A stretch of DNA of 54,519 nt from Solirubrobacterales bacterium (GCA_038207745.1 JBBQZL010000001.1:1-54519), one strand, 5' to 3'; shown: positions 12,844-40,365, numbered from the stretch's first letter. Notes: generated by a model from the letters alone, not told the origin. Numbers and translations: made by a program.

Positions 12844-13983
12844 TCATCGCGTCCCCTCCGCCTTTTCCCAGGCACCGGGTGGACCCTGCCGCCAGCGGTC
12901 CCAGAGCCCGAAAACGATCGAGGCCGTGACGATCACGTAGTAGCGCGCGATCCGGAGTGGCCCGAAGGGAACCAACGGCGCGAGGAAGGCCGCCGCGAGG
13001 AGCAGGACTTGGAGCCCCAGGGTGACCCGGTAGACCGTACCCGCCGACTGAGCGACCAGGACGATGTTGAGCCCAAGCGTGATCAGATGCAGGAACGGGG
13101 TCAGGTAGCGCAGCAGGCGGTGGGAGAAGATCTCGAAGGCAAACATCGGCGAGTAGCCGCGCGGCGAGATCATCCGCTCGCCGATCACGATGTCCCAGAG
13201 CCCGATCATCATCCGGCGCTTTCGTGACCACTCTCCGGAGAGTGTCGGAACCATCAGCTCGGAGGCGCGGGCAACGGGAACGTATACCGAGCGAAGACCC
13301 TGCCTGGCCATCTCGAAGGGAAACGAGAGGTCGTGGCTGCCGGAGGGTGGCAGCGCGACGTAGGCGCTGCGGCGGACCGCGTAGATCGCCCCGTTGCCCG
13401 CGGTCACCCCGCCCAACCCGGACTCGAGCTCGCGCACCTTCATCTCGTAGCGCCAGTAGATCCCTTCCTGATTGTCGCCGTCCTCGTTGATGAAGCTGAC
13501 CTGCCCGCAGGCGTAGCCGATGCTCTCGTCGGCGAAGGGCGCGACGAGCCCGCGCAGGGCGCCCGGCTCCCAGAAACTATTTGCGTCGGAGAATGCGACG
13601 AGATCGCCCCTGGCACTCTCGACGGCGGAATTCTGGCCGGTGATCTTGCCGCCGCGGGGCAGGTCGAGGACGAGGTCGGCGCCTGCTGCCCTGGCCACGT
13701 TGACAGTCCTGTCGGCGGAGCCGTCGGAAGCCACGATGATCTGCAGCAGCTCACGGGGGTAATCGAGCGCGAGAGTGTTCGTGACCTTGTCCGCGATCAC
13801 ATCCTCTTCGTCGTATGCGGCGATTACCAGCGAGACGCTGGGCAGCGAAACGGCGTCCCCGCCGGCCCGGACCGCCCTGCGGCCAGAAAGCAGCAATCGC
13901 AGGATCGCCAGCGCAATCGTGTAGCCGACGTGGGTATAGACGATCAGGGCCACGCAGACCCAGAAGAGGGTCTCAAGCACCAT
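12844..13983 (-). CDS. membrane-embedded family 2 glycosyltransferase (synthase-like)
   Basis: VSLVIAAYDEEDVI, ASDGSADRT, and N- and C-terminal TM helices. Confidence 0.8.
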   Translation of the reverse strand: MVLETLFWVCVALIVYTHVGYTIALAILRLLLSGRRAVRAGGDAVSLPSVSLVIAAYDEEDVIADKVTNTLALDYPRELLQIIVASDGSADRTVNVARAAGADLVLDLPRGGKITGQNSAVESARGDLVAFSDANSFWEPGALRGLVAPFADESIGYACGQVSFINEDGDNQEGIYWRYEMKVRELESGLGGVTAGNGAIYAVRRSAYVALPPSGSHDLSFPFEMARQGLRSVYVPVARASELMVPTLSGEWSRKRRMMIGLWDIVIGERMISPRGYSPMFAFEIFSHRLLRYLTPFLHLITLGLNIVLVAQSAGTVYRVTLGLQVLLLAAAFLAPLVPFGPLRIARYYVIVTASIVFGLWDRWRQGPPGAWEKAEGTR

Positions 13984-15132: not shown

Positions 15133-16074
15133 GTGGAACCGACACTCTCCTACTGCATCGTGAACAGCAATGGCCGCAAGTATCTGCTCGCCTGCCTTGC
15201 CGCGATCGCGCGCAATCACCCCCACGGGGTCGACTGCGAGATCCTTGTTCTGGACAACGCATCGAGCGATGGATCAGCCGATGCCGCGCGGGCCTGGAGC
15301 GACGAGAATGCCACAGCGGTGACCGTGATCGCGCTCGACCAAGCGGAGGGCAAGGCGGCCAACGACTCGCGCCTGATTCGGGACGCCAAGGGCCGCTACT
15401 GCCTGCTCCTCAACGAGGATTCCGAGGTTATGGACGGAACTGTGGCGGCATTGATTGCGGCCCTTGAAGCGGAACCGAAGGCGGCAGCCGCCGGAGCACA
15501 ACTGCTCGACGGCGACCTCGTCCCGTATCCCTGTGCCTGGCGTTTCCCCGGGCTGGCGACCGCATGTGCCGGGGCGCTCTTTCTGCACCGCAGATACACG
15601 GTCCAGAGCGGCGGCGGCGGCGGCGGCGAAACCCGTATCGTCGATTGGGCGCAATCCAGCGCGCTTATGGTTCGCCGAGAGGCCGCCGCCCAGGTCGATT
15701 TCCTCGACCCAGAGTTTTTCGTCTACTACGACGAGTGCGACTTCTGCAAGCGCCTCGCCGACGCCGGCTGGCACACCCTCTACGTCCCCGGCGCAAATGC
15801 AATCCACCACAACCAGCTCTCGACCGACCTGGGCAAAGGCCTGCCACGGATCGTCGAGTTCCACCGCAACCGCGACCTCTACATGCGAAAGCACCACGGC
15901 CCGGCAGAAGCCGCAGTGGTCAGACTGCTGACCGCCTGGACCTACGGCCTCCGCGCCATCGCCGCCCTCGTCGTCCCCGGCCACTCGCCGAAGGTCCACC
16001 TGGTCCACGCTCGTCAGGCGCTTTTCCCCGGTCGCGGCAGGGGGATTCGCGACAAGGTCGAAGCCGGCCGCTGA
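15133..16074 (+). CDS. family 2 glycosyltransferase
   Basis: SYCIVNSNGRKYL, LVLDNASSDGS, NEDSEV. The GTG start is only 26 nt from the divergent GT4 start. Confidence 0.8.
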   Translation: MEPTLSYCIVNSNGRKYLLACLAAIARNHPHGVDCEILVLDNASSDGSADAARAWSDENATAVTVIALDQAEGKAANDSRLIRDAKGRYCLLLNEDSEVMDGTVAALIAALEAEPKAAAAGAQLLDGDLVPYPCAWRFPGLATACAGALFLHRRYTVQSGGGGGGETRIVDWAQSSALMVRREAAAQVDFLDPEFFVYYDECDFCKRLADAGWHTLYVPGANAIHHNQLSTDLGKGLPRIVEFHRNRDLYMRKHHGPAEAAVVRLLTAWTYGLRAIAALVVPGHSPKVHLVHARQALFPGRGRGIRDKVEAGR

Positions 16075-16142
16075 AGCCCGGGGAGATACCTCCGGTCCGC
16101 GAAACCGAAGGTCACTGGTTCGAATCCTGTCGGGCGCGCTCT
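16074..16142 (+). repeat. tRNA-3'-half-like element, copy A (degenerate, no D arm)
   Basis: T arm ACTGG-TTCGAAT-CCTGT, then CGGGCGC-G. A 4-bp stem CGGT/ACCG with loop CCGCGAA. The 5' strand AAGCCCG pairs 5 of 7. Bases 16101-16142 match 25426-25467 at 36 of 42 positions. Confidence 0.6.
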
Positions 16143-16245
16143 GGAAACCCACTCCAAAACCGCTCTGGCAAGCGCAAACGGAGAAGGTCAAGGCTCCGCT
16201 GCCGAAGTCTCCGAAATCCCCAGATCGGGGGGCCGCGCCTAGGAA

Positions 16246-16269
16246 GACTATCGCGCAGTTATCGCGCGG
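16246..16269 (+). repeat. ATCGCGC tandem motif (arm-type repeat), copy A
   Basis: gactATCGCGCagttATCGCGCgg, closely similar to 19941-19966. Confidence 0.5.
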
Positions 16270-16380
16270 ATCCAAGCCGAGAACCTCGGCGACGCTGACA
16301 AGGGCTCAGCCATCTTCTCTTCCCTCCTCTTGCCCGGGGCCTGTGTTGCATCTCCGCCACAAGGTGATTGACCTCATACC

Positions 16381-16415
16381 TTGACAATACCCCCCCAGGG
16401 TATTACTGTCAAGTC
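16381..16415 (+). promoter_or_regulatory. candidate promoter TTGACA-17 nt-TACTGT giving a leaderless transcript; overlaps an imperfect inverted repeat
   Basis: The -10 ends 6 nt before ATG 16416. TTGACAATACCC ... GGGTATTACTGTCAA is an imperfect palindrome. Confidence 0.5.
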
Positions 16416-17111
16416 ATGACCCGGAACCCGATCGCGGCGTTGGCCCCCACGGCGGGTACCCCTAAGACCGGCGAAGCGGAGACGGTGATGCGAGCCGAAG
16501 GAGTGAAGAAGGGCTTCCACCGCGGTCTACCGCCGCGGCGGCGCAGGACCGAGGTCCTTAAAGGGGCAAGCCTCGAGGTTCGCCGCGGCGAGTTGGTCGG
16601 CCTGGTCGGCGAGAATGGCTCGGGAAAGAGCACCCTGATGAAGATCGTCGTTGGCATGATGGAGGGTGACGGGGGAGAGATTGAGCGAAACGGAAAGCTC
16701 GGCTACTGTCCGCAGACGCCGCTGCTCTGGGAGAAACTGACAGTGGCCGAGCACTTCGAGCTGTTCGCCCGCGCGTACGACCTCGACCAGACCGAAGCGG
16801 ACTCGACCAGCCAGAGCCTGCTCGCCGAACTTCAGTTCGAACGCTACCGCGGCTACCGGATCGAGGACCTCTCCGGCGGGACCCGGCAGAAGCTGAACCT
16901 GGCACTGGCCCTGATGCACGGGCCTGACCTTCTGCTGCTCGACGAGCCCTACTCCGGCTTCGACTGGGAGACATACCTGCGCTTCTGGGAGATGAGCGAG
17001 AGGCGCCGCGACCAGGGGATGGGCATCCTGATCGTCTCCCACTTCCTCTCCGAGCGCGAGCGCCTCGACCGCGTCTACGAGCTGCGTGACGGGAGGTGCA
17101 TCGAGGCGTGA
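16416..17111 (+). CDS. ABC transporter ATP-binding protein (ABC-2 exporter type)
   Basis: GENGSGKST, LSGGTRQKLNLA, LLLLDEPYSGFD. ATG 16488 (MRAEGVKKGF) is an alternative start. Confidence 0.85.
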   Translation: MTRNPIAALAPTAGTPKTGEAETVMRAEGVKKGFHRGLPPRRRRTEVLKGASLEVRRGELVGLVGENGSGKSTLMKIVVGMMEGDGGEIERNGKLGYCPQTPLLWEKLTVAEHFELFARAYDLDQTEADSTSQSLLAELQFERYRGYRIEDLSGGTRQKLNLALALMHGPDLLLLDEPYSGFDWETYLRFWEMSERRRDQGMGILIVSHFLSERERLDRVYELRDGRCIEA

Positions 17112-17824
17112 GCGGAATTGTGATTTCCAGCGCCGACTTCCTGCGCGAGCACCTGCGGGCACGGCTGACGCTGGTCATGTTGGTGGCGCTCCCGGCTCTT
17201 TTCGTGCTCGTCTCGGCCTCGGTGCTCGGAGAGTTCGCCTCGGCTCTCGGCGGCTCGGTCGCCGGCGATTCTGCCTCGGCACTGGGCGCCGGTTGGGCTG
17301 CGGCCTTTATGGCGGGTGCTCTCGGCTTCTTTCAGGTCGCCTCGGCTCGCGGGGCGGATCGCCGCCTGGCGCTGGCGGGAATGGGAGCGGTGCCGGTAGC
17401 GGTTGCGCGGATATCGGCCTCGATTCTTCTTGGGCTGCTGATATCAGGAGTCGCCTTCGGCACCCTCTGGCTAGCTGCCGGCATCGCTCATCCCGCCCAC
17501 GCATTCATCGCGATCCTGATCTTCGCTCTGATCTACATCGGTATCGGCACCGTGGTCGGATCGTTCATCTCCGACCCGCTGGAGGGCTCGCTCACCGTGG
17601 CGTTCATCTTCCTGATCGACGCCTTCTCCGGCCCGGGGATGAGCGGTGGCGGAGGGCTGGCGCAGCTGATGCCGACCCGCAAGGCGGCCGACGTACTGGT
17701 CGCCGCCGGGGCGGGCCAGAGCTCGCCGGCCGGGGACTGGATCGCGGTGTGTCTGACGGCCCTCGGGGCCCTACTGATTGCGACGGGGGCCTTCTGGCTC
17801 TCCGCCCGGCCGAGGTCGGCATGA
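17108..17824 (+). CDS. ABC-2 type transporter permease
   Basis: About 6 predicted TM helices. GTGA overlap with the ATPase stop. Confidence 0.7.
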   Translation: MSGIVISSADFLREHLRARLTLVMLVALPALFVLVSASVLGEFASALGGSVAGDSASALGAGWAAAFMAGALGFFQVASARGADRRLALAGMGAVPVAVARISASILLGLLISGVAFGTLWLAAGIAHPAHAFIAILIFALIYIGIGTVVGSFISDPLEGSLTVAFIFLIDAFSGPGMSGGGGLAQLMPTRKAADVLVAAGAGQSSPAGDWIAVCLTALGALLIATGAFWLSARPRSA

Positions 17825-18567
17825 GCGGGCGCGCTTCCACGGCGATCCGGATGGGCTTCCGCGAGCAGCTCCGCCGCCCCCTGCTGCTGGTCCTACTGAT
17901 AACCGTCCCGTTCCTCTTCATCAGCTGGAGCGTGGCGATCACCGAGCCCAACCCGCACCTGATCACCCTGCCCGGTGGCGATCAATTCCTGACCACGATG
18001 AAGGATCTGCACGGCGCGATCATGGTGCCGATCACCGTTGGCTTCCTCGCCGGCCTGGTCGGCCTCTTCATCGTCCAGTCGGCCCTGGAATCCGACCGCC
18101 GCCTGGTGCTGGCCGGATACAGTCCCGGTGAGGCGATCATGCCGCGCCTCGTCGTCCTTTTCACGGCGACACTCGTCGTCATCGCCGTTTCCCTCGGGGT
18201 AACTGCGATCGACTTCACCCCCGCTTCCTGGCTCCCCTTCGTTACCGGCAACCTCCTGGCCGGCCTGATCTACGGCGCGATCGGCGCCCTGGCGGGAGCG
18301 CTCGTCGGCCGCCTCGGAGGCGCCTATCTGATGTTCTTCCTGCCGATGCTGGACATCGGGGTTGCCCAGAATCCGATGTTCTTCCGAGGCACCCCGCAGG
18401 GGTGGGCCACCGTGCTCCCAGGCTACGGTCCGACCCGGGTCCTGGTCGACGGCGCGTTCTCGTCGAGCTTTGACGCCGGGGGCTCGCTGATCGTGGCGTT
18501 GCTCTGGCTTGCCGCCCTCTCAGTGGCCGTGCTCGTTCTGCTTCGCCGCTCCGTTGCCGGCTCCTAA
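17821..18567 (+). CDS. ABC-2 type transporter permease (second subunit)
   Basis: ATGA overlap with the previous stop. Polytopic, with a large first loop (PNPHLITLPGGDQFLTTMKDLHG). Confidence 0.7.
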   Translation: MSGRASTAIRMGFREQLRRPLLLVLLITVPFLFISWSVAITEPNPHLITLPGGDQFLTTMKDLHGAIMVPITVGFLAGLVGLFIVQSALESDRRLVLAGYSPGEAIMPRLVVLFTATLVVIAVSLGVTAIDFTPASWLPFVTGNLLAGLIYGAIGALAGALVGRLGGAYLMFFLPMLDIGVAQNPMFFRGTPQGWATVLPGYGPTRVLVDGAFSSSFDAGGSLIVALLWLAALSVAVLVLLRRSVAGS

Positions 18568-18675
18568 GGACGAGCGCTTCCAGCAGGGTGGGTGCTGCAC
18601 GATCGGCGAACTGATACGCCCTGAATTGAACCGAGCCGCCGCCAACTACCACGCCCTCGTGCTCTGCTCACCGCG

Positions 18676-19134
18676 CTACTTGCCGCTCTGCGACGAACCG
18701 CCCGTGGGGACATCAGGCGAGGGGCCACCTCCGTGCAGGTGGGCAATCAGGTCGGCCATCTGGTTCGCCTCGAAGGTCGGGAATGGGATGCCTTCCTCCG
18801 CGAAAGCGGCCTCCATCGCGGGGACGTGGTTCCAGATCCTGCCGCTCATGTTGGCGATGTCGGTGACGCTCTGCTTGCTCCTCATGAAGTCGAGCTTAGG
18901 AGCGTCGGTGCCACCCTGGCCCTCGAAGGTATGACACATCGAGCAGCCCTGGCTGACGAACAGCATCCGTCCCTGCGTCGCGTTTCCGATGCTGCTGGCT
19001 TGAAGCGACCCGCTCGAAGAGTTGCTCTCACTTCCCTTGACGAGGACACCGAACACCACCCCGACGCCCAATCCGAGAGCGGCGGCGACCAATATGAGAA
19101 GAAGGGCATTCGAGGACCCACGTTGATTCAACAT
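18676..19134 (-). CDS. membrane-anchored monoheme c-type cytochrome
   Basis: N-terminal TM ALLLILVAAALGLGVGVVFGVLV and heme motif CSMCH. A distal Met for the axial ligand is plausible (IWNHVPAM). Confidence 0.75.
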   Translation of the reverse strand: MLNQRGSSNALLLILVAAALGLGVGVVFGVLVKGSESNSSSGSLQASSIGNATQGRMLFVSQGCSMCHTFEGQGGTDAPKLDFMRSKQSVTDIANMSGRIWNHVPAMEAAFAEEGIPFPTFEANQMADLIAHLHGGGPSPDVPTGGSSQSGK

Positions 19135-19202
19135 CCGCTCAACGAATCGCGCCAGGTGACAGATCGCAACTTGGGTCGGTCCGACGCGCCGGTCCTCCGG
19201 AA

Positions 19203-19508
19203 TTACAGCGGTGGGTGGTCTCGTAGCGTCTGGCAAGTGCCAGCTTCTCCTCGGTCCAGCGGATCGGTCGGCCGCTCTCTGCGCGGGTCTCGGGCCCGCG
19301 CCGATGCCCTCAGCCTCACCCGCCGCAGGAGGTCGAGGCACTCCAGCTTCTTGGCGGCGCGCAGGTAGCCCTTCTGGACGCTTGACGTTCCTTCCGGAGC
19401 ATCGATCACCAACCCGCCATGGGTTCCCGGCGGGGGAGCGTAGACCAGCAGGGTGCGCTCGAGGACGCCGAGGCGGACGCCCTTGAAGGTCGAGGTCCGC
19501 CCACTCAT
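19203..19508 (-). CDS. hypothetical small protein (orphan)
   Basis: GAGG lies before ATG 19508. The first ~65 codons have strongly G/C third positions. No family recognised. Confidence 0.5.
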   Translation of the reverse strand: MSGRTSTFKGVRLGVLERTLLVYAPPPGTHGGLVIDAPEGTSSVQKGYLRAAKKLECLDLLRRVRLRASARARDPRRERPTDPLDRGEAGTCQTLRDHPPL

Positions 19509-19634
19509 CGCCTCTGCGCGATTCTGGCCGCCATCCGCCTTGCGATCTCGTCCAGGTCCGCTGTCGGCATATCGTCTGATGCGGTCCCGGCCCCGTCTCG
19601 AGCTGACCGGGGATCAGTGCATGCAGCCTCGGCG

Positions 19635-19883
19635 TCAAGTTGTGCTCTCTTCCGCGCCGTCTGGTCTACGTCTGATGTCGCGAGCTCCCGGATGGTCTTG
19701 CCCTGGCGGCCCAGGGGAGGGGGTCAGGATCACCCTCCCGTTGGCTGCTGCCTCAGCCAGCTTTCGAAGCAGATCGGGGCGGGATACCCCGCGATGGAGC
19801 GCCATACGGTCGATCTGTGCGGCGAGCTCGGAAGGCAGCTTGGTCGAGACGGTCTGAACCTTCTTGGTTTCTGAAGAGGCCAC
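19635..19883 (-). CDS. ribbon-helix-helix (CopG/Arc/MetJ-like) DNA-binding protein
   Basis: KVQTVSTKLPSELAAQIDRMALHRGVSRPDLLRKLAEAAA fits a beta-strand/helix/helix pattern. Third-position GC is visibly lower than in neighbouring genes. Confidence 0.6.
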   Translation of the reverse strand: MASSETKKVQTVSTKLPSELAAQIDRMALHRGVSRPDLLRKLAEAAANGRVILTPSPGPPGQDHPGARDIRRRPDGAEESTT

Positions 19884-19940
19884 ACAACAGGTATTCCGAC
19901 GATTTCGCGGTGCTCCCCAAACGGACTCTTGAGGCCCGTG

Positions 19941-19966
19941 GGACCATCGCGCAGGTCTATCGCGCG
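19941..19966 (+). repeat. ATCGCGC tandem motif (arm-type repeat), copy B
   Basis: gaccATCGCGCaggtctATCGCGCgg; compare 16246-16269. Confidence 0.5.
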
Positions 19967-20030
19967 GCGCTGCCGACGCCCAATGAATGGCTCAAAAGTG
20001 CCAGTCACCGGGAACCAGCGGATGGTCTAA

Positions 20031-20061
20031 GAAACCGAAGTCACTGGTTCGTCTCGCGAAC
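20031..20061 (+). repeat. partial tRNA-3'-half-like element, copy B, ending in a GGTTCG-tctc-CGAACC hairpin
   Basis: 20031-20051 equals 16101-16122 except for one missing G. The hairpin could also terminate the SDR operon on the minus strand. Confidence 0.55.
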
Positions 20062-20074
20062 CGGGTGATCGGGT

Positions 20075-20902
20075 TCAGCCCGGTCGTCGTGCCTTCAGTG
20101 CACGGTCGACCATGCGGTCGCCGGCCGCGTTCATCAGGCCCGGGAGGATGTTGGCGAGGCGACGGGTGAACCGTGCGCGGTGGCCGGGGATGATCATCCG
20201 GCGGCGGCCTTCCAGCCCGCGGATGATCTCTTCGCAGGCTTGGTCGACACCGAGGGTGCCCGAGAACTTCTTCAGCTCGAGGCTGATCGCGTCGCCGGTC
20301 CGGCGTTCGTCCTCGACCATCGCGGTCTCGACCTCCGGCGGACAGATCACCGAGACGGCGATGCCCTTCGGCTTGTACTCCAGCCTCAACGCCCCCGCCA
20401 GCCCCACAACCCCGAACTTGGAGGCGCTATAGGCCGCATAGCCGTAGTTCGGGACGATCCCGGCAAGGGAGGCGATCAGGGCGAGCTGCGCTCCCGGTTG
20501 CATTTGGGGGAGAACCGCTGCGGCGAAGTTGCGACTGCCGATCAGGTTGACCTCGACGACGAGCCGGAACCGCTCCTCGCTGAGCTCCTCAAACGTCTTC
20601 GATGCCTGGACCCCGGCCGAATTGATCGCAAGAGTCGGCGGCCCGGTCGCCGCAACCGCCTTCTCGACGGCCCGAGCCAGCGCGTCGGCGTCGGTGACGT
20701 CGACCTCGTGGAAGCCGGCGCCCGCTCCACTGTCCGCGTCGCCCCCGTCGCCTCCGAGCCTGCGCCTGGCTTCGTCACCGATCTTCAGATCGAAGACGGA
20801 AACCGCCACTCCTCGCGCCCGCAGCATCTCGGCCAGGCGCAGGCCGATGCCGCTCCCTCCGCCGCTGATCAAAGCCGTCTTCCAGTCCGTTCGCACGCTC
20901 AT
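20075..20902 (-). CDS. SDR family oxidoreductase
   Basis: ALISGGGSGIGL; YAAYSASK catalytic motif. Confidence 0.85.
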   Translation of the reverse strand: MSVRTDWKTALISGGGSGIGLRLAEMLRARGVAVSVFDLKIGDEARRRLGGDGGDADSGAGAGFHEVDVTDADALARAVEKAVAATGPPTLAINSAGVQASKTFEELSEERFRLVVEVNLIGSRNFAAAVLPQMQPGAQLALIASLAGIVPNYGYAAYSASKFGVVGLAGALRLEYKPKGIAVSVICPPEVETAMVEDERRTGDAISLELKKFSGTLGVDQACEEIIRGLEGRRRMIIPGHRARFTRRLANILPGLMNAAGDRMVDRALKARRPG

Positions 20903-20927
20903 CGTTTTCCTCTCGTTGTCCGCTTCG

Positions 20928-21890
20928 CTAATCCAGCAGGCCCTGTCCGGCCAGCCACTGTTCGCTTCGCCGCATGCCTTCCTCCAGATCGACCTTGGGC
21001 TCGTATCCGAGCAGCCGTCGTGCCTTGTCGATCGAGTAGCCGCCGGTACGGGCCAACATCCTCATCGACTCGGCACTCACCTCGGTCTCCCGCCCCAGGG
21101 CGCCGAAGGTCATCCCGACCACACCGGCCAACCCCTTCGCCAGGGGGGTCGGCAGGGTCCGGATCGACTTGCCGCCGAGCATGCGGGCGTAGTGCCCGAA
21201 GAAGTCCCTCGCCGGCAGCCCGGCGCCGTCGCCGAGGATGAATACCTGTCCCGCCGCAACTTCAAGGCCGCCGACTGCCTCGAGCCCGTCGATCAGGTTG
21301 TCGATGTAGACCGGGCTGAAGACGCCCATGCCTCGGGCCGGCAGCGCGAACTGGCCCGAGCGAAGCATCTCGACCGGGATCCGCGTCCAAGGTCGGGAGC
21401 GCGGGCCATAGACATCGGTGGGACGGACGACGGAACAGGCGACCTCGCCCGCCGCGTGGGCCTGCAGGACGAAATGCTCGGAGGCGACCTTGGTGTCCAC
21501 GTAGTGGTTGCCGTTGGGCCGCAGCGGGTAGGTCTCGTCGACTCCATCGGGGAAGTCGAACCCGTATGCCGCAACCGAGGAGAGATGCACGAAGCGACCG
21601 ACACCGGCGTTCGCAGCGGCCTCGAGCGCCCGCCGCGTACCCAGCACATTCACGTTCCAGGAATTCTCCTCGGAGGCGACGTTCGAGACCACGGCCGCGG
21701 TGTGGAAGACGAGGTCGCATCCAATAAGCCTTCGCGCCCAGCCGCTCGGGTCGAGGATGTCGCCGGCGACGACGCCGAGCTCCGGCTCGGCAACCCGATC
21801 GAGCCCGCCCACCTCGGCCCCGGCAGAGCGGTAGCGCTCCAGCAGGGCCCGGCCGATGAAGCCGAGAGCGCCGGTGACGAAGATCTTCAT
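20928..21890 (-). CDS. NAD-dependent epimerase/dehydratase family protein
   Basis: MKIFVTGALGFIGRAL, extended-SDR layout. Start at ATG 21890; the longer ORF extension is Arg-rich and non-protein-like. Confidence 0.8.
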   Translation of the reverse strand: MKIFVTGALGFIGRALLERYRSAGAEVGGLDRVAEPELGVVAGDILDPSGWARRLIGCDLVFHTAAVVSNVASEENSWNVNVLGTRRALEAAANAGVGRFVHLSSVAAYGFDFPDGVDETYPLRPNGNHYVDTKVASEHFVLQAHAAGEVACSVVRPTDVYGPRSRPWTRIPVEMLRSGQFALPARGMGVFSPVYIDNLIDGLEAVGGLEVAAGQVFILGDGAGLPARDFFGHYARMLGGKSIRTLPTPLAKGLAGVVGMTFGALGRETEVSAESMRMLARTGGYSIDKARRLLGYEPKVDLEEGMRRSEQWLAGQGLLD

Positions 21891-22846
21891 TTCCTTCTCC
21901 TGATCGTGGTCGGAGTGAAGCCGGTCAGTCGCCACGCCCAGCGGCGCGGGTAGAGCAGCTCGACGTTCTCGCCCGAGGGAAGTTCGAAGTACATGACGCG
22001 GAAGATCCCGGCCTCGAGCGGCTTCTCGCTGGTCGGCCGGAATCCGCGATCGACCCAGCGGTCGTAGGTGCGGTCGAAGGTGGCGCGGTCGCGGGCGACG
22101 ATGGCGATGTTCATGATCCCCTGGTCGCAGATCCGATAGCCATCGGGCAACGGCCTGCCGAGCGGACGCTGGTATTCGACCAGCTCGAGCAGCACCCCGC
22201 CGCCGTCGAGCGTGTGCTCGCGCCGCTCTGCTCCATCCAGTCCCCACATGGCCTCGTGCTGAGGGGAGTGGAGGGGGAGATCTGCGGTATCGAATCCGAT
22301 GCCGTCGGCCCAGGTGTGGACGGCAGCGTCGAGGTCGGTGACCGAGATCGTGATCGAGCGCAGGGTCGCCGGGACCTCCGGTCGCTGCTTGGCGGGCTCG
22401 GAGGCGGCCAGGGGATCCGCCTCCATCAACTCGATCCAGTTGCCCTCGGGGTCGCGCGCGCATGCGCGGCGTTGCGGCCGGACCCCGAGTACCGGGCCCA
22501 CCGGCTCAGAACCGAGGCGCGCCATCCGGCCGAGGGTTGCATCGAAGTCGCGGACGTGGAAGCCGGCGCGACGGTAGCCGTGATCGGCCGGGGTCTCATC
22601 GGGTCGGCGAGTGCGTGGGCGGGGGTGGATGAAGTGAAAGAGTTCGATCTGGGTCCACTCGCGTCCGTCGATCAGCCAGCGGGCGGTGAAGAGTGGAGTG
22701 GTGAGACCGTTGACCTTCGCCGCCGGTGGCCCGGCGAACAGTGACGCGCCGCTCGGAAGCAGCCCGAGACCGTCCCGGTACCACTCACGCATCTGCGAGC
22801 CCCCGAGGTGGTTGAAGGCGAGTTGGCCGATCGCGAGGTCACGCAT
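21887..22846 (-). CDS. two-domain VOC (glyoxalase/bleomycin-resistance/dioxygenase) family protein
   Basis: Two repeats of the VOC pattern (FHVRDFDATLGRM..., ITISVTDLDAAVHTW...). ATGA overlap with the downstream epimerase gene. ATG 22891 is an alternative start. Confidence 0.65.
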   Translation of the reverse strand: MRDLAIGQLAFNHLGGSQMREWYRDGLGLLPSGASLFAGPPAAKVNGLTTPLFTARWLIDGREWTQIELFHFIHPRPRTRRPDETPADHGYRRAGFHVRDFDATLGRMARLGSEPVGPVLGVRPQRRACARDPEGNWIELMEADPLAASEPAKQRPEVPATLRSITISVTDLDAAVHTWADGIGFDTADLPLHSPQHEAMWGLDGAERREHTLDGGGVLLELVEYQRPLGRPLPDGYRICDQGIMNIAIVARDRATFDRTYDRWVDRGFRPTSEKPLEAGIFRVMYFELPSGENVELLYPRRWAWRLTGFTPTTIRRRK

Positions 22847-22978
22847 ACGCGGATCTCCCTGCCCCGCTGGTCCACCCATACTTGACGCCATCGGTCTGGT
22901 TCAGCCCGCGAGCCTGGGCCGGGTCCGCCTCTTGTACGGAGTGGTAGCTCATCCGACCTCGCCTTCGCTGGATCAAAT

Positions 22979-23005
22979 CAGAACACAAGTCATGTTACAG
23001 TTCTG
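22979..23005. promoter_or_regulatory. candidate TetR operator CAGAAC-N15-GTTCTG
   Basis: Inverted repeat 7 nt upstream of the TetR ATG, in the divergent intergenic region. Confidence 0.4.
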
Positions 23006-23011
23006 CGTTGG

Positions 23012-23701
23012 ATGATCTCAGGCGATACCCCAGAGGCGACGACCGCGGATCAGGCGCAGACGCGCAGACGCCCCGTGCAGGCGCGGAGCCGGGACACCGT
23101 CGAGCGGATCCTCACCGCGGCCACCGAGCTGATCGAGGAATCCGGCGTCGATGCCGCCTCGACCCGGGCAATCGCCGGGCGGGCGGGCGTTTCGGCGCCC
23201 TCCCTGTACCGGTTCTTCGCGGATCGCGATGAGATCCTCGACGAGATTCTGAAGCGGCAGCTGCATCAGCTCGACGCTCATGCCGAGCACGAGGAGTCGG
23301 GTTGGCGCTTCGGCTCGGTCGAGGAGTTCGTCGGCCTCGAACTCGACCTCCATGTCGACTTCTACGAGCAGCACCCGAGCTTTGCGCGGCTCTGGTTCGG
23401 CGGCAGGGTGAGCCCGACGGTCGTCGCCGAGGTCCACGGCCGTAACCGGGCGCTTGCCTCGCGCGCGCGCAGGGTTCTGGTCGATGCAGGCATGATCAAG
23501 GCGGACACCGCACCGGGGGCTCTCGACCTGCTCGTGGAGCTCGGCGACCGGGTTCTGGAGATGGCGTTCAGGGAAGGGCCGAAGGCGGACCCCGAGGTGA
23601 TCGAGATGGGGCGCGGCGCGCTGATCGCCTGCCTACAGGGCTGGATAACGGGCGGGAGATCGATTACCGCGGAACCGGAGGGAAGCAATGGGCAAGATTG
23701 A
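23012..23701 (+). CDS. TetR/AcrR family transcriptional regulator
   Basis: ARSRDTVERILTAATELIEESGVDAASTRAIAGRAGVSAPSLYRFF. Confidence 0.85.
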   Translation: MISGDTPEATTADQAQTRRRPVQARSRDTVERILTAATELIEESGVDAASTRAIAGRAGVSAPSLYRFFADRDEILDEILKRQLHQLDAHAEHEESGWRFGSVEEFVGLELDLHVDFYEQHPSFARLWFGGRVSPTVVAEVHGRNRALASRARRVLVDAGMIKADTAPGALDLLVELGDRVLEMAFREGPKADPEVIEMGRGALIACLQGWITGGRSITAEPEGSNGQD

Positions 23702-25397
23702 CGGTGGTGAGCTTTTCGTCAGGGCGCTTCGCGCCGAGGGAGTCGAGCAGATCTTCGCGATCTCCGATATCAGCTACTCGCCGATCCAGCGCAGCGCCGA
23801 GGCTCACGGGATCCGCACGGTGGCCGGCAGGCACGAGAGCGCGAACGTCCACATGGCGGAGGCCTGGGCGCGGGCCTCGGGCAAGGTTGCGGTCGCGATG
23901 GCCGGCATGGGCCCGGGTGTGGCGAATCTCGTCCCGGCCGTGATCACCGCCTGGATCGAGGGCTTTCCGCTGATCGTCATCGGGACTCAACGGACCGATC
24001 GCGCCGACCGCTCGATCAGGCGCGGGCGGTTCCAGCACACCCCCCAACTCGACGTCTTCCGGCCGATCACCAAGTTCGCCGCCTCCGTGCCCGATGCGGA
24101 ACGGGCACCGGAGTATGTGCGCGAGGCCTTTCGATCCGCCCTACGAGGTCGTCCGGGGCCCAGCTATCTCGAGTTCCCGGTCCAGGTCCTCCGGGAAGAG
24201 GTCGAGGAGGCGGACGTGAGGATGCCGCCACCGTCGCGCTATCGCGTCACCGCCGGTTCACCGGACCCGGGCTCCGTCGATCGCGCCGCGCAGCTGCTCG
24301 CCGACGCCGAGCTGCCCCTGATCCTCGCCGGCCAGGGGATCAACCACGGTGCGGCCTCGGACGAACTCCGGGCTCTGCTCCACCACACCGGTGCTGCGCT
24401 GATCACGACGCTGGGGGCGCGTGGGGTCATCGACGAGGACGACGATCACGTCGTCGGGCAGCCGATGTTCTCGCCCGCCGGGGCGCGACTGGCGCAGGAA
24501 GCTGACGTCGTGCTCGCGGTCGGGACCGCGATCGGCGAGACGCTCGGTTACGGCATGCCGCCGCAGTGGGCGGGACCCGAGAAGCAGCAGTGGATCCACC
24601 TCGACAGCGACCCGGATTCGATCGGCGTCAACCGCGAGGTTGATTGCGCGTTGGTCGGCGATGCCAGGAAGGGCCTCGAAGCCCTGCTGGTGGCCATCGG
24701 CGATCGCACCGGCCCGGCCGAGATAGGCCCGCTGCTGAGCGAGGTCGCGGCGCAGGAGCGCGAACTGATCGGTCAGCTTCGAGACGGCCTCGGGGCGAGC
24801 GATGCGTATCCGATCCATCCAGCGCGCCTCGCGAACGAGGTGGCGACGTTCTTCGGCGACGACGCGATCACCTGTCTCGACGGCGGCAACACGACACTCT
24901 GGGCGGTCCTCTTCCACCGCTTCCACAGCCCCCGGTCGCTGATCTGGACCAGCCACTTCGGCCACCTCGGGACCGGGTTGCCGTATGCGATCGGCGCGAA
25001 GCTGGCGAAACCCGAGCGCCCCGTCTACCTGTTCACGGGCGACAGCGCGCTCGGGTTCAATCTCACCGAGCTCGAGACCGCCGCTCGCGAGCAGCTCGAT
25101 CTCGTCATCGTCGTCGCCTGCGACTTCGCGTGGTCGATGGAGGCCCTCGGTCAGCAACAGGAGCTTGGGCGCACGATCGGGCTCGAAACCACCCACGTCC
25201 GCTACGACGAGGCGGCTCGGGCACTCGGCTGTGATGGCGAGTTGGTCGAGCGCGCGGAGGAGATCCGCCCCGCGCTCGAGCGCGCTGTCGCTACCGCGGG
25301 GCCGGTGCTGATCCAGGTCAATATCGATCCGGGCGAGAACGAAAGCCCTCCGTTCCTCCAGCAATTCCTCGACATGTACGCCGCGGAAGACACCTGA
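23688..25397 (+). CDS. thiamine-diphosphate-dependent enzyme (acetolactate synthase / benzoylformate decarboxylase superfamily)
   Basis: N-terminal GGELFVRALRAEGVEQIF...HESANVHMAEAWARASG and a C-terminal GDSALGFN ThDP-binding motif. Confidence 0.8.
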   Translation: MGKIDGGELFVRALRAEGVEQIFAISDISYSPIQRSAEAHGIRTVAGRHESANVHMAEAWARASGKVAVAMAGMGPGVANLVPAVITAWIEGFPLIVIGTQRTDRADRSIRRGRFQHTPQLDVFRPITKFAASVPDAERAPEYVREAFRSALRGRPGPSYLEFPVQVLREEVEEADVRMPPPSRYRVTAGSPDPGSVDRAAQLLADAELPLILAGQGINHGAASDELRALLHHTGAALITTLGARGVIDEDDDHVVGQPMFSPAGARLAQEADVVLAVGTAIGETLGYGMPPQWAGPEKQQWIHLDSDPDSIGVNREVDCALVGDARKGLEALLVAIGDRTGPAEIGPLLSEVAAQERELIGQLRDGLGASDAYPIHPARLANEVATFFGDDAITCLDGGNTTLWAVLFHRFHSPRSLIWTSHFGHLGTGLPYAIGAKLAKPERPVYLFTGDSALGFNLTELETAAREQLDLVIVVACDFAWSMEALGQQQELGRTIGLETTHVRYDEAARALGCDGELVERAEEIRPALERAVATAGPVLIQVNIDPGENESPPFLQQFLDMYAAEDT

Positions 25398-25425
25398 GCG
25401 GCGGCCGAGGCCGCGGCAAGGCCAC

Positions 25426-25467
25426 GAGACCGGTGGTCACGGGTTCGAGTCCTGTCGGGCTCGCTCT
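25426..25467 (+). repeat. tRNA-3'-half-like element, copy C
   Basis: T arm ACGGG-TTCGAGT-CCTGT, then CGGGCTC-G. 36 of 42 positions are identical to copy A. No complementary 5' acceptor strand upstream. Confidence 0.6.
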
Positions 25468-25804
25468 CAAGGCCCCCGACAGACCGCGTGGGAATGCGGC
25501 GTTTGCCGGTACCAAATTGAGCCTTCAAAAAGTGGCAAACTCGTCAAACCGCTTGGACATGCGGTCTCAAGCTGTCGCGCGACTATCGCGGGCAAGTGAG
25601 ATGGCCAAATGGGATCGCAGCGATTCGGGAAAGCGAAACCATCGCGCAGGCAGGCACGCTCCGGCTGGCGACGAGGCCGAAATGAGCTGGTCGGTGATCA
25701 GCCTCGACGATGGCCTGAGCAGATAATCCTGGCTCTATCAGGCACCTGCCGGTCCGGGTGCCCACTTGACGAGTGGGTTCGAGACGATCTCGGCTGATCC
25801 AACG

Positions 25805-27052
25805 ATGGGGTCCAGACAGGGAACCCGAGTACTTCGCATCTTCGTAGGTCTGGTCTGCGCGGTTTCGCTGGTCGCGTTCGGTGAGGGTGAGATCTTTGCG
25901 CCGGTTGCGCTTGGCGCCAACTATGTCTATTGGACAAATCAGGTTGGTTATAGCCTGCATCCCGGCTCGATCTCCTTCCTCAGCCTCGACCCCACCGAAT
26001 CGCGGGGCAACCTGGGCACGACGGGCGCGACCCTCTTCAACCCCACGGCCGTCACGCTCGACCCTCCGAGTGGCCGCTTCTACTGGGGCAACCACGCCCC
26101 CGGCGGTATCTCCTACGCGAACCTCAACGGCTCCGGCGGCGGTGACCTCCACCTTGGGGTTGCAACCGTGAACTTCCCGGAAGGGGTCGCGGTGGATCCA
26201 GCCGCCGGGCGTATCTACTGGGCAACCGATGGAGCCGGCAAGATCTCCCTTGCGCTGTTCGACGGAGGAGGAGGAGGAGACGACCTCGGGACCGACTTCG
26301 CCACGGTGAGTAATCCGGTGGGCGTCGCGGTCGACCCTCTTGCAAGTCGGGTCTACTGGGGGGCCAACGGAGACATTTCCGCGATCTCCTTTGCCTCACT
26401 GGTCACGCCCACGGGAGACAACCTCTACACCGACGGCGCGAGCATCTCCTTCCCGGCCTACCCGGCTATCCTCGCGGCTCCAAGCGGGACGGGCGCCCCG
26501 ACCATCGGCGGAGGCTCGGCGCCTGGCTCGACGCTGGCCTGCACGGACGGCAGATGGTCGGCGGGGCAGGTCAGCTCCTTCTTCTACCGCGCTCCCGAGA
26601 GCTTTGCCCACCAATGGAGCCGCAACGGGATTGACGTCCCCGGGGCCAACGCGAGCACCTATGTCCCCGGCTCGATCGGCGACTACGGCTGCCGGGTGAC
26701 CGGGCGAAATGAGTCCGGCTCGGCGACCCAGCTGGGCGAAGTTCCGCAGGATGTCTTCCAGGTTGGCGCGGCGGCGCTGATGCCGCGCCACGCCAACGCG
26801 AATCTGCCCGTGATGGTCCCCGATCCGGGGACGGTCACCCTCAGCGGCAACCAGGTCGTCCCGAGGCACGTCGTCTCTTCAACGCTCACCGGAGCGGGCA
26901 CGGTAAAGCTGCTGGTCAAGCCCAGGGGGTCGAAGAAGAGGAAGCTGAATCGGACCGGCCGGGTGAAGGTCACGGTCACGGTCAGCTACCAGCCGGACGC
27001 CGGGGCCGGCGGAAGTCAGATGAAAACGATTGGTCTGAGGAAGTCCCACTAG
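25805..27052 (+). CDS. secreted protein with YWTD-type beta-propeller-like repeats and an Ig-like module
   Basis: Signal-like N-terminus RVLRIFVGLVCAVSLVAFG. Four repeats ending in YVYWTN, RFYWGN, RIYWAT and RVYWGAN. Then C..GRW...YRAP..F.HQWSRNG..V.GA..STY. Confidence 0.65.
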   Translation: MGSRQGTRVLRIFVGLVCAVSLVAFGEGEIFAPVALGANYVYWTNQVGYSLHPGSISFLSLDPTESRGNLGTTGATLFNPTAVTLDPPSGRFYWGNHAPGGISYANLNGSGGGDLHLGVATVNFPEGVAVDPAAGRIYWATDGAGKISLALFDGGGGGDDLGTDFATVSNPVGVAVDPLASRVYWGANGDISAISFASLVTPTGDNLYTDGASISFPAYPAILAAPSGTGAPTIGGGSAPGSTLACTDGRWSAGQVSSFFYRAPESFAHQWSRNGIDVPGANASTYVPGSIGDYGCRVTGRNESGSATQLGEVPQDVFQVGAAALMPRHANANLPVMVPDPGTVTLSGNQVVPRHVVSSTLTGAGTVKLLVKPRGSKKRKLNRTGRVKVTVTVSYQPDAGAGGSQMKTIGLRKSH

Positions 27053-27064
27053 AGCCTTCGCCGG

Positions 27065-28639
27065 CTAGTTCACCGAGTCCTCGTCGCGGGACTCTGCCTC
27101 GTAGAACTCGGGGATGCCGCGCCCATCCCCTGGACGCTCCCCCTCCTCTCCCGTGGGCACCGCAAACGAGGCGGATGCCATCGTCCCGGCCCGCGAGACG
27201 AACTCCCTTGGGTGTCCGAGAATCGAGAGCCCCTTCAGCTCGGTTTCGGTGAAGAAGCCCGTGACGAGGAGCAGCAGCGGATAGGCCGCGAGCAGCACCA
27301 GCCGCCCTGCGAAACCCGCGATCCCCTCCCCGGGCAGCAGCGCCTCGCCGAGGCCGACCACCAGCGCCGAGAAGCCGACGATCCTGATCAGCCTTCCCCA
27401 CTCGTATGGGACCGGGAAGAGCCGCTGGGTGAAGAAGTACATGAGGATCAAGACCACGACGTAGGAGATGACCAGCGCGAGTCCGGCGCCGACGATTCCC
27501 ATCGAGGGGACCAGGATGATGTTGAGGACGATGTTGACCACCGTTGCCGCGATCGTCGCCGGGAAGTTGAACTCGGTGCGGCCGGTGCGGCCGAGGATCA
27601 CGACCAGGACCATGTAGAGCGCGTAGAGCGTCACGCCGGTCGAGAGCAGTCCGATCGCCTCGTAGGAGTCGAAGAACTGTGGCGCGGCGAAGATCCTCAC
27701 GATCCAGCGCGAAAACAGCCACATCCCGGTTACCACGAGGGTGCAGATGCCGAGAAACCATGTGACCACGAGCGCGTATGTATTCCTTGCCTCGTCGTCG
27801 TCCCTGATCGAGTAGGCGAGCGGCGGCCAGGCGAGCTGGAAACCACGGACCAGGACGTTGACCCCCTGCGAGAACTTGACCGCCAGCGAGTAGAGACCCG
27901 CCTCGGCGAGGCCGATGTAGCGGACGATGATGATCCGGTCGATGAAGTTGAGCGAGTAGAGGGTCAGCTCCGCGGGCATGGTCGGAAAGCCGAAGCGCAT
28001 CAGGCGTCGAAGCAGCCCCCACTCTGGCCATAGCGAGAGCCGCCGCCAGTTGGCGATGACCAGCCCGGCCACGAAGAGCGCGCCCGACGCGTAGCTGCCG
28101 AGTAGGAGCCCGCGCGCGCCCTCGTCCATGAAGACAACCAGGACGATGGTCAGCGGGATCGTCAGGGCGACGTTTGCGATCGTGACGATGAAGTAGGGCC
28201 TCGCCCGCTCGTCGAGCCGGTAGAGGGTGAGCAGGTACTCGAACAGGGTCAGGACCCAGAGGCCTCCGATCGCGATCCTGACCAGACCGGGAGCCGACTG
28301 GTCGAGGAGCGCGTTCGAGATCGGCTCCGCAAATGGCAGCAACGCCGATGCCGTCAGCGTTGCTCCCCAGAACAAGGTCGCAAAGGAGGTGGAGACGACC
28401 TTCTTCGGATCCTCTCCGCCCGTGTAGTAGAAGCGCAGCAGCGCCTCGATCATCCCGAGTCGCACGACAATGGAGGCCGCGACCACTGCAGCGAAGAGAA
28501 CCTCGGCTGCGCCGTAGTCAGCGGGGCTGAGGTGGCGCGTGTAGAGAGGCAGCAGCGCAACCGCGATCAACTTGGAGAGGATGCTGGCCGCCGTGTAGGC
28601 GGCTCCGGTTGTCGCCAGGCGGCGCAGGGATCCCGACAC
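27065..28639 (-). CDS. Wzx-like oligosaccharide/polysaccharide flippase (MOP superfamily)
   Basis: About 12-14 TM helices. The N-terminus AYTAASILSKLIAVALLPLYTRHLSPADYG is typical of the family. Confidence 0.75.
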   Translation of the reverse strand: MSGSLRRLATTGAAYTAASILSKLIAVALLPLYTRHLSPADYGAAEVLFAAVVAASIVVRLGMIEALLRFYYTGGEDPKKVVSTSFATLFWGATLTASALLPFAEPISNALLDQSAPGLVRIAIGGLWVLTLFEYLLTLYRLDERARPYFIVTIANVALTIPLTIVLVVFMDEGARGLLLGSYASGALFVAGLVIANWRRLSLWPEWGLLRRLMRFGFPTMPAELTLYSLNFIDRIIIVRYIGLAEAGLYSLAVKFSQGVNVLVRGFQLAWPPLAYSIRDDDEARNTYALVVTWFLGICTLVVTGMWLFSRWIVRIFAAPQFFDSYEAIGLLSTGVTLYALYMVLVVILGRTGRTEFNFPATIAATVVNIVLNIILVPSMGIVGAGLALVISYVVVLILMYFFTQRLFPVPYEWGRLIRIVGFSALVVGLGEALLPGEGIAGFAGRLVLLAAYPLLLLVTGFFTETELKGLSILGHPREFVSRAGTMASASFAVPTGEEGERPGDGRGIPEFYEAESRDEDSVN

Positions 28640-39381: not shown

Positions 39382-39384
39382 CTC

Positions 39385-40353
39385 CTAGAACTGATGGGAG
39401 CGGGCGCGCCGGTGGCGCTCGATCGCCAGGTCTGCGAGACGGTTGCAGAGGTCGGGATAGGTGATTCCCCCCGCTTCGAGCAACTTGGCGTAGACGCTGG
39501 TCTTGGTGAAGCCGGGGATCGTGTTGATCTCGTTGACCAGCACCTCGCCGTCTGGTTCGACGAAGAAATCACACCGCGCGAGGCCACTGCAGCCGGCAAG
39601 CAGGAAGACCCGCCTCGCCAGGGTCTCAACCTCCGCAATCGTCTGCTGCGGTAGATCGGCGGGCACCGCCAGCTTCATCCCACCTTCAGTGTATTTGGAC
39701 TCGAAGTCGTACCAATCGGAATCGATCACGATCTCGCCGGGCGGGGAGGTCATCGGGTCCTCGTTGCCGAGCAGCGAGCACTCGACCTCGCGACCCCGGG
39801 CCGGCGCCTCGACGATCACGCGGGGGTCGTGTCTGAGCGCCAGCTCGACGGCCTTGTCGAGCTCCTGGTCGAGTGAGTCTACGCGGGAGATACCGACGCT
39901 GGACCCGAGCCGCGACGGCTTGACCCAGACAGGCAGACCCATCTCGGCGACCGTTTCGCGCCATCCCTCCTCACCCGCCTCGACGAAGCCGACCTGGGGA
40001 ATCCCGTGGAAGCCGAGCACCCGCTTCAAGGAGAGCTTGTCCATGCAGAGCGCAGACGAGAGCACGTCAGATCCGGCATACGGCACGTCGAGGCACTCGA
40101 GCAGGCCCTGGATCGAGCCATCCTCGCCGAAGGGTCCGTGGAGGATCGGGAAGACCACATCGACATCGAGCAGGCCGCCTCCCGGACGCAGGACCACCTC
40201 CTCGGGACCGACGCTCCAGACACCCGACTGCTCGATCACGACCTCGGCGACCTGGTGCCCGAACTCGCGAAGCCCCTCGGCAACAGCGGCGCCGGAGAGG
40301 CGCGATATCTCGTGTTCACTCGAGCGGCCACCGGCCAGGACTGCGATCCGCAT
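39385..40353 (-). CDS. ddl: D-alanine--D-alanine ligase
   Basis: MRIAVLAGGRSSEHEISRLSG, ATP-grasp core, EINTIPGFT. Confidence 0.9.
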   Translation of the reverse strand: MRIAVLAGGRSSEHEISRLSGAAVAEGLREFGHQVAEVVIEQSGVWSVGPEEVVLRPGGGLLDVDVVFPILHGPFGEDGSIQGLLECLDVPYAGSDVLSSALCMDKLSLKRVLGFHGIPQVGFVEAGEEGWRETVAEMGLPVWVKPSRLGSSVGISRVDSLDQELDKAVELALRHDPRVIVEAPARGREVECSLLGNEDPMTSPPGEIVIDSDWYDFESKYTEGGMKLAVPADLPQQTIAEVETLARRVFLLAGCSGLARCDFFVEPDGEVLVNEINTIPGFTKTSVYAKLLEAGGITYPDLCNRLADLAIERHRRARSHQF

Positions 40354-40365
40354 TTCTCTTGCTCC

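Follow-up and report, generated by a model that had tools for sequence, protein, structure and literature searches.

The window considered here, a stretch of 54,519 nucleotides from a Solirubrobacterales bacterium (GCA_038207745.1 JBBQZL010000001.1:1-54519), is the entire contig C1 of a metagenome-assembled genome (MAG) of 2.65 Mb in 310 contigs, 91% complete. Two direct repeats in it, at 16101-16142 (copy A) and 25426-25467 (copy B), are very probably the attachment (att) junctions of small cargo-only cassettes that target tRNA-Arg(ACG). With a third, truncated copy they would delimit an ectopic, partly decayed array of three units in the spacer between a glycosyltransferase gene (GT2b) and a gene for a Wzx flippase. 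Each complete unit would consist of a tRNA copy running from CTACGAA to the tRNA 3' end, an arm of about 165 nt, and 1-6 kb of cargo. The units of the window are as follows.

Unit 1, 3.9 kb: A with its arm, then an ABC exporter, a cytochrome c, an orphan gene and a ribbon-helix-helix (RHH) gene
Unit 2, 5.4 kb: the truncated third fragment, without arm, then SDR-epimerase-VOC genes and TetR-thiamine diphosphate (ThDP) enzyme genes
Unit 3, 1.6 kb: B with its arm, then a gene for a secreted beta-propeller

Copies of the tRNA-Arg(ACG) 3' part

The two repeats are identical at 36 of 42 positions, in register and both on the plus strand; recomputation reproduced exactly the coordinates, strand and count given by an initial annotation of this DNA. 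No further stretch of the window attains 30 of 43 against them. They begin 26 nt past the stop codon of GT2b (16072-16074) and 28 nt past that of the ThDP enzyme gene (25395-25397), respectively. A profile of 25 genuine tRNA-Arg(ACG) genes of relatives, searched with nhmmer against the whole 2.65-Mb genome, recovers copy A (16083-16141; 46.8 bits, E 6e-12), copy B (25422-25466; 27 bits, E 9e-6) and a third site (20022-20055; 19.3 bits, E 0.002, profile positions 28-62), and these scores far exceed chance. Across 40 relatives, the top matches to A are genuine tRNA-Arg(ACG) genes (GCGCCCGTAGCTCAGTTGGATAGAGCGTCGGTCTACGAAACCGAAGGTCACAGGTTCGAATCCTGTCGGGCGCG). Judged by sequence comparison, A and B are copies of the 3' part of this tRNA, from the anticodon loop to the 3' end; identity sets in at CTACGAA, in the anticodon loop, in A, in B and in 60+ fragments of relatives. 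The three fragments can be delimited thus.

16100-16142, plus strand: fragment A, tRNA-Arg(ACG) anticodon loop to 3' end, plus GCTC; one T-stem mismatch
20022-20051, plus strand: third fragment, from tRNA-Arg(ACG); 1-nt deletion, cut off in the T loop, no arm behind it
25422-25468, plus strand: fragment B, the same tRNA part, more decayed, with about 7 of 45 positions changed

A 5' extension, GAAACCGAAGG, is common to A, B, the third site (near 20030) and a copy on contig C300; together with the tRNA genes of relatives it identifies tRNA-Arg(ACG), not tRNA-Arg(CCG), as the source. The tRNA-Arg(CCG) on contig C133, which has the T arm and acceptor in common with A, is without this extension and was dropped. 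A foreign donor tRNA for B was likewise set aside, no copy of B at ≤3 mismatches being present among 400 genomes of the class, and an ancestral position of the tRNA on C1 was abandoned because the genes flanking tRNA-Arg(ACG) in relatives map to other contigs.

None of the three copies is a tRNA. ARAGORN calls no tRNA gene in the window and no Rfam family attains its gathering score there, in agreement with the earlier statement that neither repeat is intact. At relaxed thresholds A aligns globally to the tRNA model (RF00005, cut-off 29) at 20.2 bits, and B gives no match. The D-arm-less cloverleaf that the initial annotation had drawn for A finds no support: the fold of A is no more stable than that of shuffled sequence (z = +0.39), and the 5' side of the drawing is possibly native spacer. 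We infer that the fragments are now recombination scars and not functional RNAs.

More tRNA fragments lie on small contigs of the same MAG: C300 (1526-1571, 983-1034), C239 (816-852), C137 (5436-5487), C186 (497-543) and C98 (9915-9940). Their kinds are Arg(ACG)-like, Met(CAT)-like, Lys(TTT)-like beside an integrase gene, and one with a TTC anticodon loop and a terminator hairpin behind it; the scatter suggests several poorly assembled integration hot spots. ARAGORN also reports two oversized tRNAs, at C21:19990-20082 (Arg(CCG), 93 nt) and C23:8712-8806 (Pro(CGG), 95 nt), which could contain insertions or be miscalled.

An insertion between conserved neighbors

GT2b and Wzx are convergent neighbors in all 12 relatives fetched (uncultured Solirubrobacterales of several genera), separated by a spacer of 1-165 bp that holds neither a tRNA nor a tRNA fragment. 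From this adjacency it follows that the whole of 16075-27064 (10,990 bp) is insertion. The earlier proposal that a foreign block splits the polysaccharide locus is thereby borne out, the two half-loci being contiguous in 12 of 12 relatives, and Pfam agrees with the gene content it had listed between the repeats. The repeats do not, as had been thought, bracket the block: A stands at its left edge, B is internal, and the gene for a 428-aa protein that follows B is inserted as well. Flanks and junctions are these.

15133-16074, plus strand: GT2b glycosyltransferase, left flank (Pfam Glycos_transf_2)
16075-16099, plus strand: left junction, with a hairpin at 16077-16095; residual native spacer or decayed tRNA 5' part
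27053-27064, no strand assigned: right junction, 12 nt, no tRNA fragment
27065-28639, minus strand: Wzx flippase, right flank (Pfam Polysacc_synt)

The left junction matches tRNA profile positions 19-32 weakly; cmscan pairs its GCCCG with CGGGC, and 15 of 32 positions upstream of A match tRNA. The block shows no compositional anomaly, GC content and codon bias being uniform.

The host locus is conserved well beyond the two flanking genes. In all 12 relatives the order to the left is MTHFR-(hydrolase)-DUF3105-FemAB-like-GNAT-Bac_transf-GT2-GT4-GT2b, with GT2b reading rightward, and to the right Wzx-Wzy-FlgD_Ig-(LytR_C)-CapD-VTT-BacA, with Wzx reading leftward. Of 401 family genomes, 380 have a single copy of GT2b, at 60-72% identity; being near-universal in the family, GT2b is not a variable O-antigen gene. 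Exact-protein look-ups found neither GT2b nor Wzx on record. In the window the locus genes at 10674-33440 and 37858-44983 comprise FemAB-like, GNAT, Bac_transf, three glycosyltransferases, Wzx, Wzy, FlgD_Ig, LytR_C and CapD. The polysaccharide gene order is kept across the family and the locus adjoins a pknB-pbpA-rodA cell-wall cluster; both make a core locus for an envelope glycopolymer more probable than a variable island of the O-antigen type.

In several relatives (L090, L091, L098, L093, L097) the GT2b/Wzx spacer carries small palindromic repeats of two families, CAAGGACGCAGGGAGCG...GCGACCGAGGACGC and GGTTCCACTTAACTTTTT...AAAAAGTACAAGACGTTCCACC. From these repeats the spacer appears to be a recurrent landing spot.

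A conserved arm with tandem 11-mers

The DNA behind the fragments follows a common plan of about 165 nt: a hairpin (H1) at about +20, a block (H2) at about +80, two tandem copies of ACYATCGCGCR (M2) at about +103, and a further block (M3). Its elements in the window are located as follows.

16138-16277, plus strand: cassette 1 arm; H1 16157-16174, CCCCAGATCGG 16218-16228, M2 tandem 11-mers 16246-16269
19869-19969, plus strand: P-side arm remnant; tandem 11-mers 19942-19967, 60 nt ahead of the third fragment
25464-25650, plus strand: cassette 3 arm; H1 25482-25501, H2 25545-25565, M2 25571-25593, M3 25598-25621, extra 11-mer 25637-25650

In all 2.65 Mb there are just three instances of the motif AC[CT]ATCGCGCAG, each on the plus strand and next to one of the fragments (16247, 19943, 25638); GACTATCGCG occurs in the window at 16246 and 25581 only. 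The initial annotation had pointed to a shared gactatcgcg downstream of the two repeats, and this motif is real and specific; on alignment, however, it falls in the first 11-mer in A and in the second in B. A local alignment of the DNA after A with that after B gives no significant overall similarity (z = 0.8), and the homology between the two becomes visible only via the arms of other genera. In G019, which belongs to another genus, the DNA behind the tRNA-Arg(ACG) gene and behind each of two array fragments aligns in register, over about 140 nt, with that downstream of A; the common blocks are AAACCGCTYTGGCA at +20, CCCCAGATGG at +85 and GACTATCGCGCAnnTATCGCGCGG at +104 to +107.

A sequence-only covariance model (R1), built from the A arm and three G019 arms and leaving the B arm aside, matches 86 of 381 family genomes in 22 of 58 genera, often in same-strand clusters 1-6 kb apart. 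In the MAG itself it gives four matches at three sites, all in the window and beside the three fragments: 88.6 bits after A; 23.9 bits (E 9e-5, 25464-25592) and an overlapping 23.0 bits (25542-25650) after B; and 17.9 bits (E 0.007) before the third fragment, where the remnant also aligns to the A arm at z = 7.3. The position of M2 is narrowly kept: among 30 units drawn from nine genera or more it lies 98-114 nt past the tRNA end, in most of them at 101-105, and it is at +104 in A and +103 in B. A second tandem 11-mer stands 57-62 nt upstream in 6 of 63 fragments, as it does at 19942-19967, and many fragments have a conserved AAGACCGACGGTCAAT to their left. Variants in H1 appear compensatory when judged by eye.

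The A and B arms are 42% identical to each other. The A arm is nearest to those of G104, G385 and G019 (48-50%), the B arm to those of G055 and G239 (52-55%). Since each is nearer to arms of other genera than to its neighbor, the cassettes would be of separate origin.

Two smaller features of the arm region deserve mention. M3 was considered as the start of a small conserved gene and dropped, the ATG not being conserved and the peptides being unrelated; a 41-codon open reading frame begins in M3 of the B arm (window 25602-25727), and since other arms keep neither its start codon nor its peptide it is unlikely to be a gene. The string TCAAAA(A)GTGSCA is found only three times in the genome: at 19992, beside the third fragment; at 25525, after B; and at C158:682, upstream of an unrelated ABC ATPase gene.

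Arrays behind tRNA genes in relatives

Ten genomes and 26 soil metagenome contigs show the order tRNA-Arg(ACG)-arm-cargo-fragment-arm-cargo. Fragments lie on the same strand behind the tRNA and are exact copies of the tRNA variant of their own genome; in most of these arrays the final fragment has no arm behind it. Williams reportedly described, in 2002, the anticodon-loop sublocation of tRNA integration, and on the sequences at hand the fragment arrays behind tRNA genes are a signature of site-specific integration at that sublocation.

Cargo in relatives is varied: beta-propeller with glycosidase, SDR, methyltransferase, P450, GIY-YIG nuclease, rhodanese, cation efflux, GNAT, MFS, ABC-2 exporter, FtsH and others. 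The cassettes of the ten genomes and 26 contigs contain no recombinase and no replication gene, and no PF00589 recombinase lies in or near the arrays of the ten genomes. Elements with a tyrosine integrase do occupy the same tRNA-Arg site in G032, G024 and G010, but without this arm; an integrase-bearing parent with the same arm was absent from the genomes and viral contigs examined. No viral contig has the M2 motif, and a search among them for a helper element with M2 yielded none.

Several observations bear on the range of these arrays. In two genera the arm stands instead behind tRNA-Ser(CGA) (L138, G152:C1, 6188-6416; L144, G080:C1, 5453-5679), which suggests that it is combinable with a different core. 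Two successive cassettes in L057 (G019:C1 2818000-2828400) hold paralogous pairs, 61-63% identical, of a DUF5122 beta-propeller and a glycosyl-hydrolase core; surface propeller proteins are a recurring cargo, to which the 428-aa gene of the window belongs. In L135 (G239:C1), ARAGORN calls a tRNA-Arg(ACG) at 13865-13941 whose 5' half is off the family consensus and whose profile match starts from position 26; it could be a hybrid or pseudo-tRNA heading an array.

Formation of the array and competing explanations

Units of this kind normally stack head to tail behind a genuine tRNA gene in related Solirubrobacterales. They would be inserted by a heterobivalent tyrosine-type recombinase supplied in trans, with the crossover in the anticodon-loop region and the tandem 11-mers bound as arm sites. 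Here a first cassette may have entered a secondary, non-tRNA site in the GT2b/Wzx spacer, and later ones may have recombined with the tRNA fragment left behind, the newest being at the left. Such a history would account for A being the least and B the most decayed copy, for a left breakpoint that falls together with a fragment, and for a right end without one, since attR at a pseudo-site retains no tRNA part. The initial annotation had suggested serial insertion into one tRNA-like site. The serial part agrees with the 42% identity of the A and B arms and their closer kin in other genera, but the spacer of the relatives offers no tRNA or fragment that could have been that site.

Several observations weigh against an att array. 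The right end of the insertion (27053-27064) has no tRNA fragment; the third fragment has an arm remnant in front of it instead of an arm behind; no tRNA-Arg(ACG) gene is assembled in the MAG, 91% complete as it is; no recombinase linked to the array was identified in the window; two array-bearing genomes (61% and 84% complete) have just two Xer-like tyrosine recombinases; and the contig is a metagenome assembly.

The bare right end would also suit a single arrival, in which part of a canonical tRNA-Arg(ACG) array, possibly with the tRNA gene itself at its head and since decayed to A, came in by illegitimate or homologous recombination with no site-specific insertion here. This course is unlikely, although the anticodon-stem position of A reads CGGT as in the tRNA, in place of the CAAT usual in cassette-borne copies, the 15 of 32 upstream matches and the global cmscan alignment with its 5-bp acceptor stem recall a whole tRNA, and the layout of a tRNA-like head followed by cassettes mirrors the arrays of relatives. 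In an 11-kb block, a random left breakpoint would be unlikely to fall within about 25 nt of a fragment start; the GCCCG "acceptor" is 10 nt out of tRNA register and lies in a hairpin that is possibly a native terminator; fragments beginning at profile positions 16-28 are normal inside arrays; and the gradient of decay from A to B fits serial insertion. That the 11 kb are a chimeric join is highly improbable: the MAG is in 310 contigs and tRNA-linked islands are often badly assembled, but both junctions lie in unique sequence, the two flanks together restore the exact conserved adjacency, and composition is uniform across the block.

Two further explanations assign the repeated elements a function in expression. 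The initial annotation had offered, as an alternative, that the copies are tRNA-like RNA elements of 3' untranslated regions that mark or process mRNA ends, and the distance of 26-28 nt from the stop codons of same-strand genes and the well-paired T arm of B speak for it. Against it, neither copy is called by ARAGORN or reaches the Rfam cut-off, A folds no better than chance, the third copy is antisense to both adjoining genes, the ends of the GT2b orthologues in 12 relatives are without the element, and copies elsewhere follow cargo of either orientation with an extent that is exactly that of an att duplication; we rejected it as scarcely credible. RHH proteins bind tandem direct repeats, and the tandem ATCGCGC 11-mers might thus be operators of the RHH repressor or another regulator (of the exporter, the RHH operon and the beta-propeller), not arm sites, which would still be compatible with att scars. 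The site at 19942-19967 is indeed 59 nt upstream of the RHH start, with the same layout in L247 and L253, and each of the three motif sites is upstream of the first gene of a cassette. The fixed distance of +98 to +114 from the tRNA end in 30 units of at least nine genera, mostly without an RHH gene, the variable distance to the downstream gene, and a -60 copy without recognizable RHH in three of six cases make operators a rather improbable explanation.

Cargo of the three proposed cassettes

On the att-junction interpretation, the genes carried by the three units are the following; those of cargo 1 and cargo 2 were assigned with Pfam and that of cargo 3 from its translation.

Cargo 1, span 16368-19883
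16368-17111, plus strand: ABC ATPase
17086-18567, plus strand: ABC-2 permease
within 18676-19638, minus strand: cytochrome c
19203-19508, minus strand: 101-aa orphan
19635-19883, minus strand: RHH protein (82 aa)
Cargo 2, span 20075-25397
20075-20902, minus strand: SDR
20928-~21890, minus strand: epimerase
21887-22891, minus strand: VOC
23012-23701, plus strand: TetR
23688-25397, plus strand: ThDP enzyme
Cargo 3
25766-27052, plus strand: 428-aa secreted YWTD-like beta-propeller

No recombinase is found among the block genes with Pfam, nor does PF00589 find one on C1. The 428-aa gene was considered as a hidden recombinase and dropped, its product being a secreted YWTD-type propeller with a signal peptide and YWTN/FYWGN/IYWAT/VYWGA repeats; none of 12 relatives has a homologue of it between GT2b and Wzx. 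The ThDP enzyme has no match at E≤1e-150 among 400 family genomes, and a related-locus search with it turned up no relative. A conserved cassette around the ABC exporter was also discarded: the ATPase-permease pair is present in 15 of 151 genomes, a patchy distribution, and elsewhere shows no linkage to tRNA fragments, RHH or cytochrome c.

The right end of cassette 1 is a different matter. Besides the window, three other, unrelated genomes or contigs have the RHH-orphan module directly upstream of a tRNA-Arg fragment, from which it reads away; its sites are 19203-19883 in the window, 1051-1644 in L247, 1501-2042 in L252 and 1522-2071 in L253. Tandem 11-mers stand about 60 nt before the fragment in three of these four, none being detected in L252. 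The soil contig that matches the end of cassette 1 does so at 68% identity in the orphan and 59% in the RHH protein, and the order of orphan, RHH (both reading leftward), 11-mers at -60 and fragment is common to the window, this contig and G074; G146 has the same orphan-RHH-fragment order, with no M2-like motif found. Because its right end recurs in the soil contig, G074 and G146, unit 1 would be a genuine member of the cassette family. The RHH protein and the 101-aa orphan could be a toxin-antitoxin-like stabilizer or a pair accessory to recombination.

Comparison with known systems

Sites of the phage lambda attP type contain arm-type Int sites. The likeness lies in tandem direct repeats about one helical turn apart, fixed on both sides of the core (-60, +104); the difference is that no Int or Xis is linked to the sites here, where the arm sites are putative. 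Like integron cassettes, the units form arrays of promoter-poor, cargo-only elements with one recombination site each and a recombinase encoded elsewhere. Unlike them, they have a tRNA-derived site with an arm in place of a folded attC, and no IntI, attI or Pc platform adjoins; no tyrosine recombinase stands beside any array examined.

The Islander concept covers tDNA islands with a displaced gene fragment (PMC4383910). Such islands share with the arrays the tRNA 3' direct repeat at the ends, the anticodon-loop onset, the stacking behind a tRNA and the broken synteny, and the window has a displaced 3' fragment in direct orientation with the canonical sublocation. An intact tRNA at one end is missing from the window and present in the canonical arrays of relatives. 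The array differs from those islands in having no integrase (PF00589 on C1, Pfam of the block genes), units of 1-6 kb, and a location away from any tRNA gene.

The ssrA islands of Dehalococcoides are tandem and include members without an integration module that are proposed to be cis-mobilizable (PMC3146451). Tandem arrangement, direct repeats of a small-RNA 3' end, conserved nucleotides beside the repeat and integrase-less members are all common ground. Most ssrA islands, in contrast, carry a serine recombinase module (DsiB), of which none was seen here; they target tmRNA, and their 20-bp repeat has no long conserved arm. The cis-mobilizable elements (CIMEs) of accretion arrays of integrative and conjugative or mobilizable elements (ICEs and IMEs) are att-bounded and have no recombination or transfer functions (PMC5704250), and are presumed to be moved by the integrase of a related element. 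Fragment and arm at the cassette boundaries, with no recombinase in the window, the ten genomes or the 26 contigs, correspond to this description; unlike in CIMEs, no integrase-bearing parent with the same arm is known from the genomes and viral contigs examined. Tycheposons of Prochlorococcus likewise form cargo islands beside tRNA genes, with partial tRNAs between insertions and older remnants scattered, but they have their own tyrosine recombinase and replication genes (bioRxiv 10.1101/2020.12.28.424599), belong to another host lineage, and are described without a 165-nt arm; since neither recombinase nor replication module is found here, only the partial-tRNA hallmark is common. For Xer-dependent modules (pdif or IMEX type), which have dif-like XerC/XerD sites at their borders, the one pointer is that the two array-bearing genomes mentioned above have just two Xer-like recombinases. 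What sets the present arrays apart from described systems is the combination of very small cassettes, a long conserved arm, no linked recombinase found, and an array off the tRNA gene.

Implications for gene flux in soil Solirubrobacterales

The window shows the entry of an exporter, a redox protein, a small catabolic cassette and a surface beta-propeller into a conserved envelope polysaccharide locus. It also provides a searchable signature, a tRNA-Arg 3' part followed by an arm with tandem 11-mers at +103, which marks small integrase-free cassettes in about one-fifth of the sampled family genomes. For annotation there is a warning: tRNA-like matches that follow genes in these genomes should be taken as scars of recombination, not as RNA genes.

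Tentatively, soil Solirubrobacterales may have a gene-capture platform, undescribed and still active, whose recombination site is the fragment together with its 165-nt arm. If this is so, a recombinase encoded elsewhere in the genome, chromosomal or even Xer-type, would insert, excise and exchange cargo-only cassettes in their hundreds, with the tandem 11-mers at -60 and +104 as its arm sites; the RHH-orphan module would have an accessory or stabilizing role, and the window would show the seeding of a new array at a non-tRNA site in a core locus. An active platform would add to the cassette systems that work without a linked integrase, and it would be one of the main routes for gene flux in an uncultured soil lineage of great abundance.

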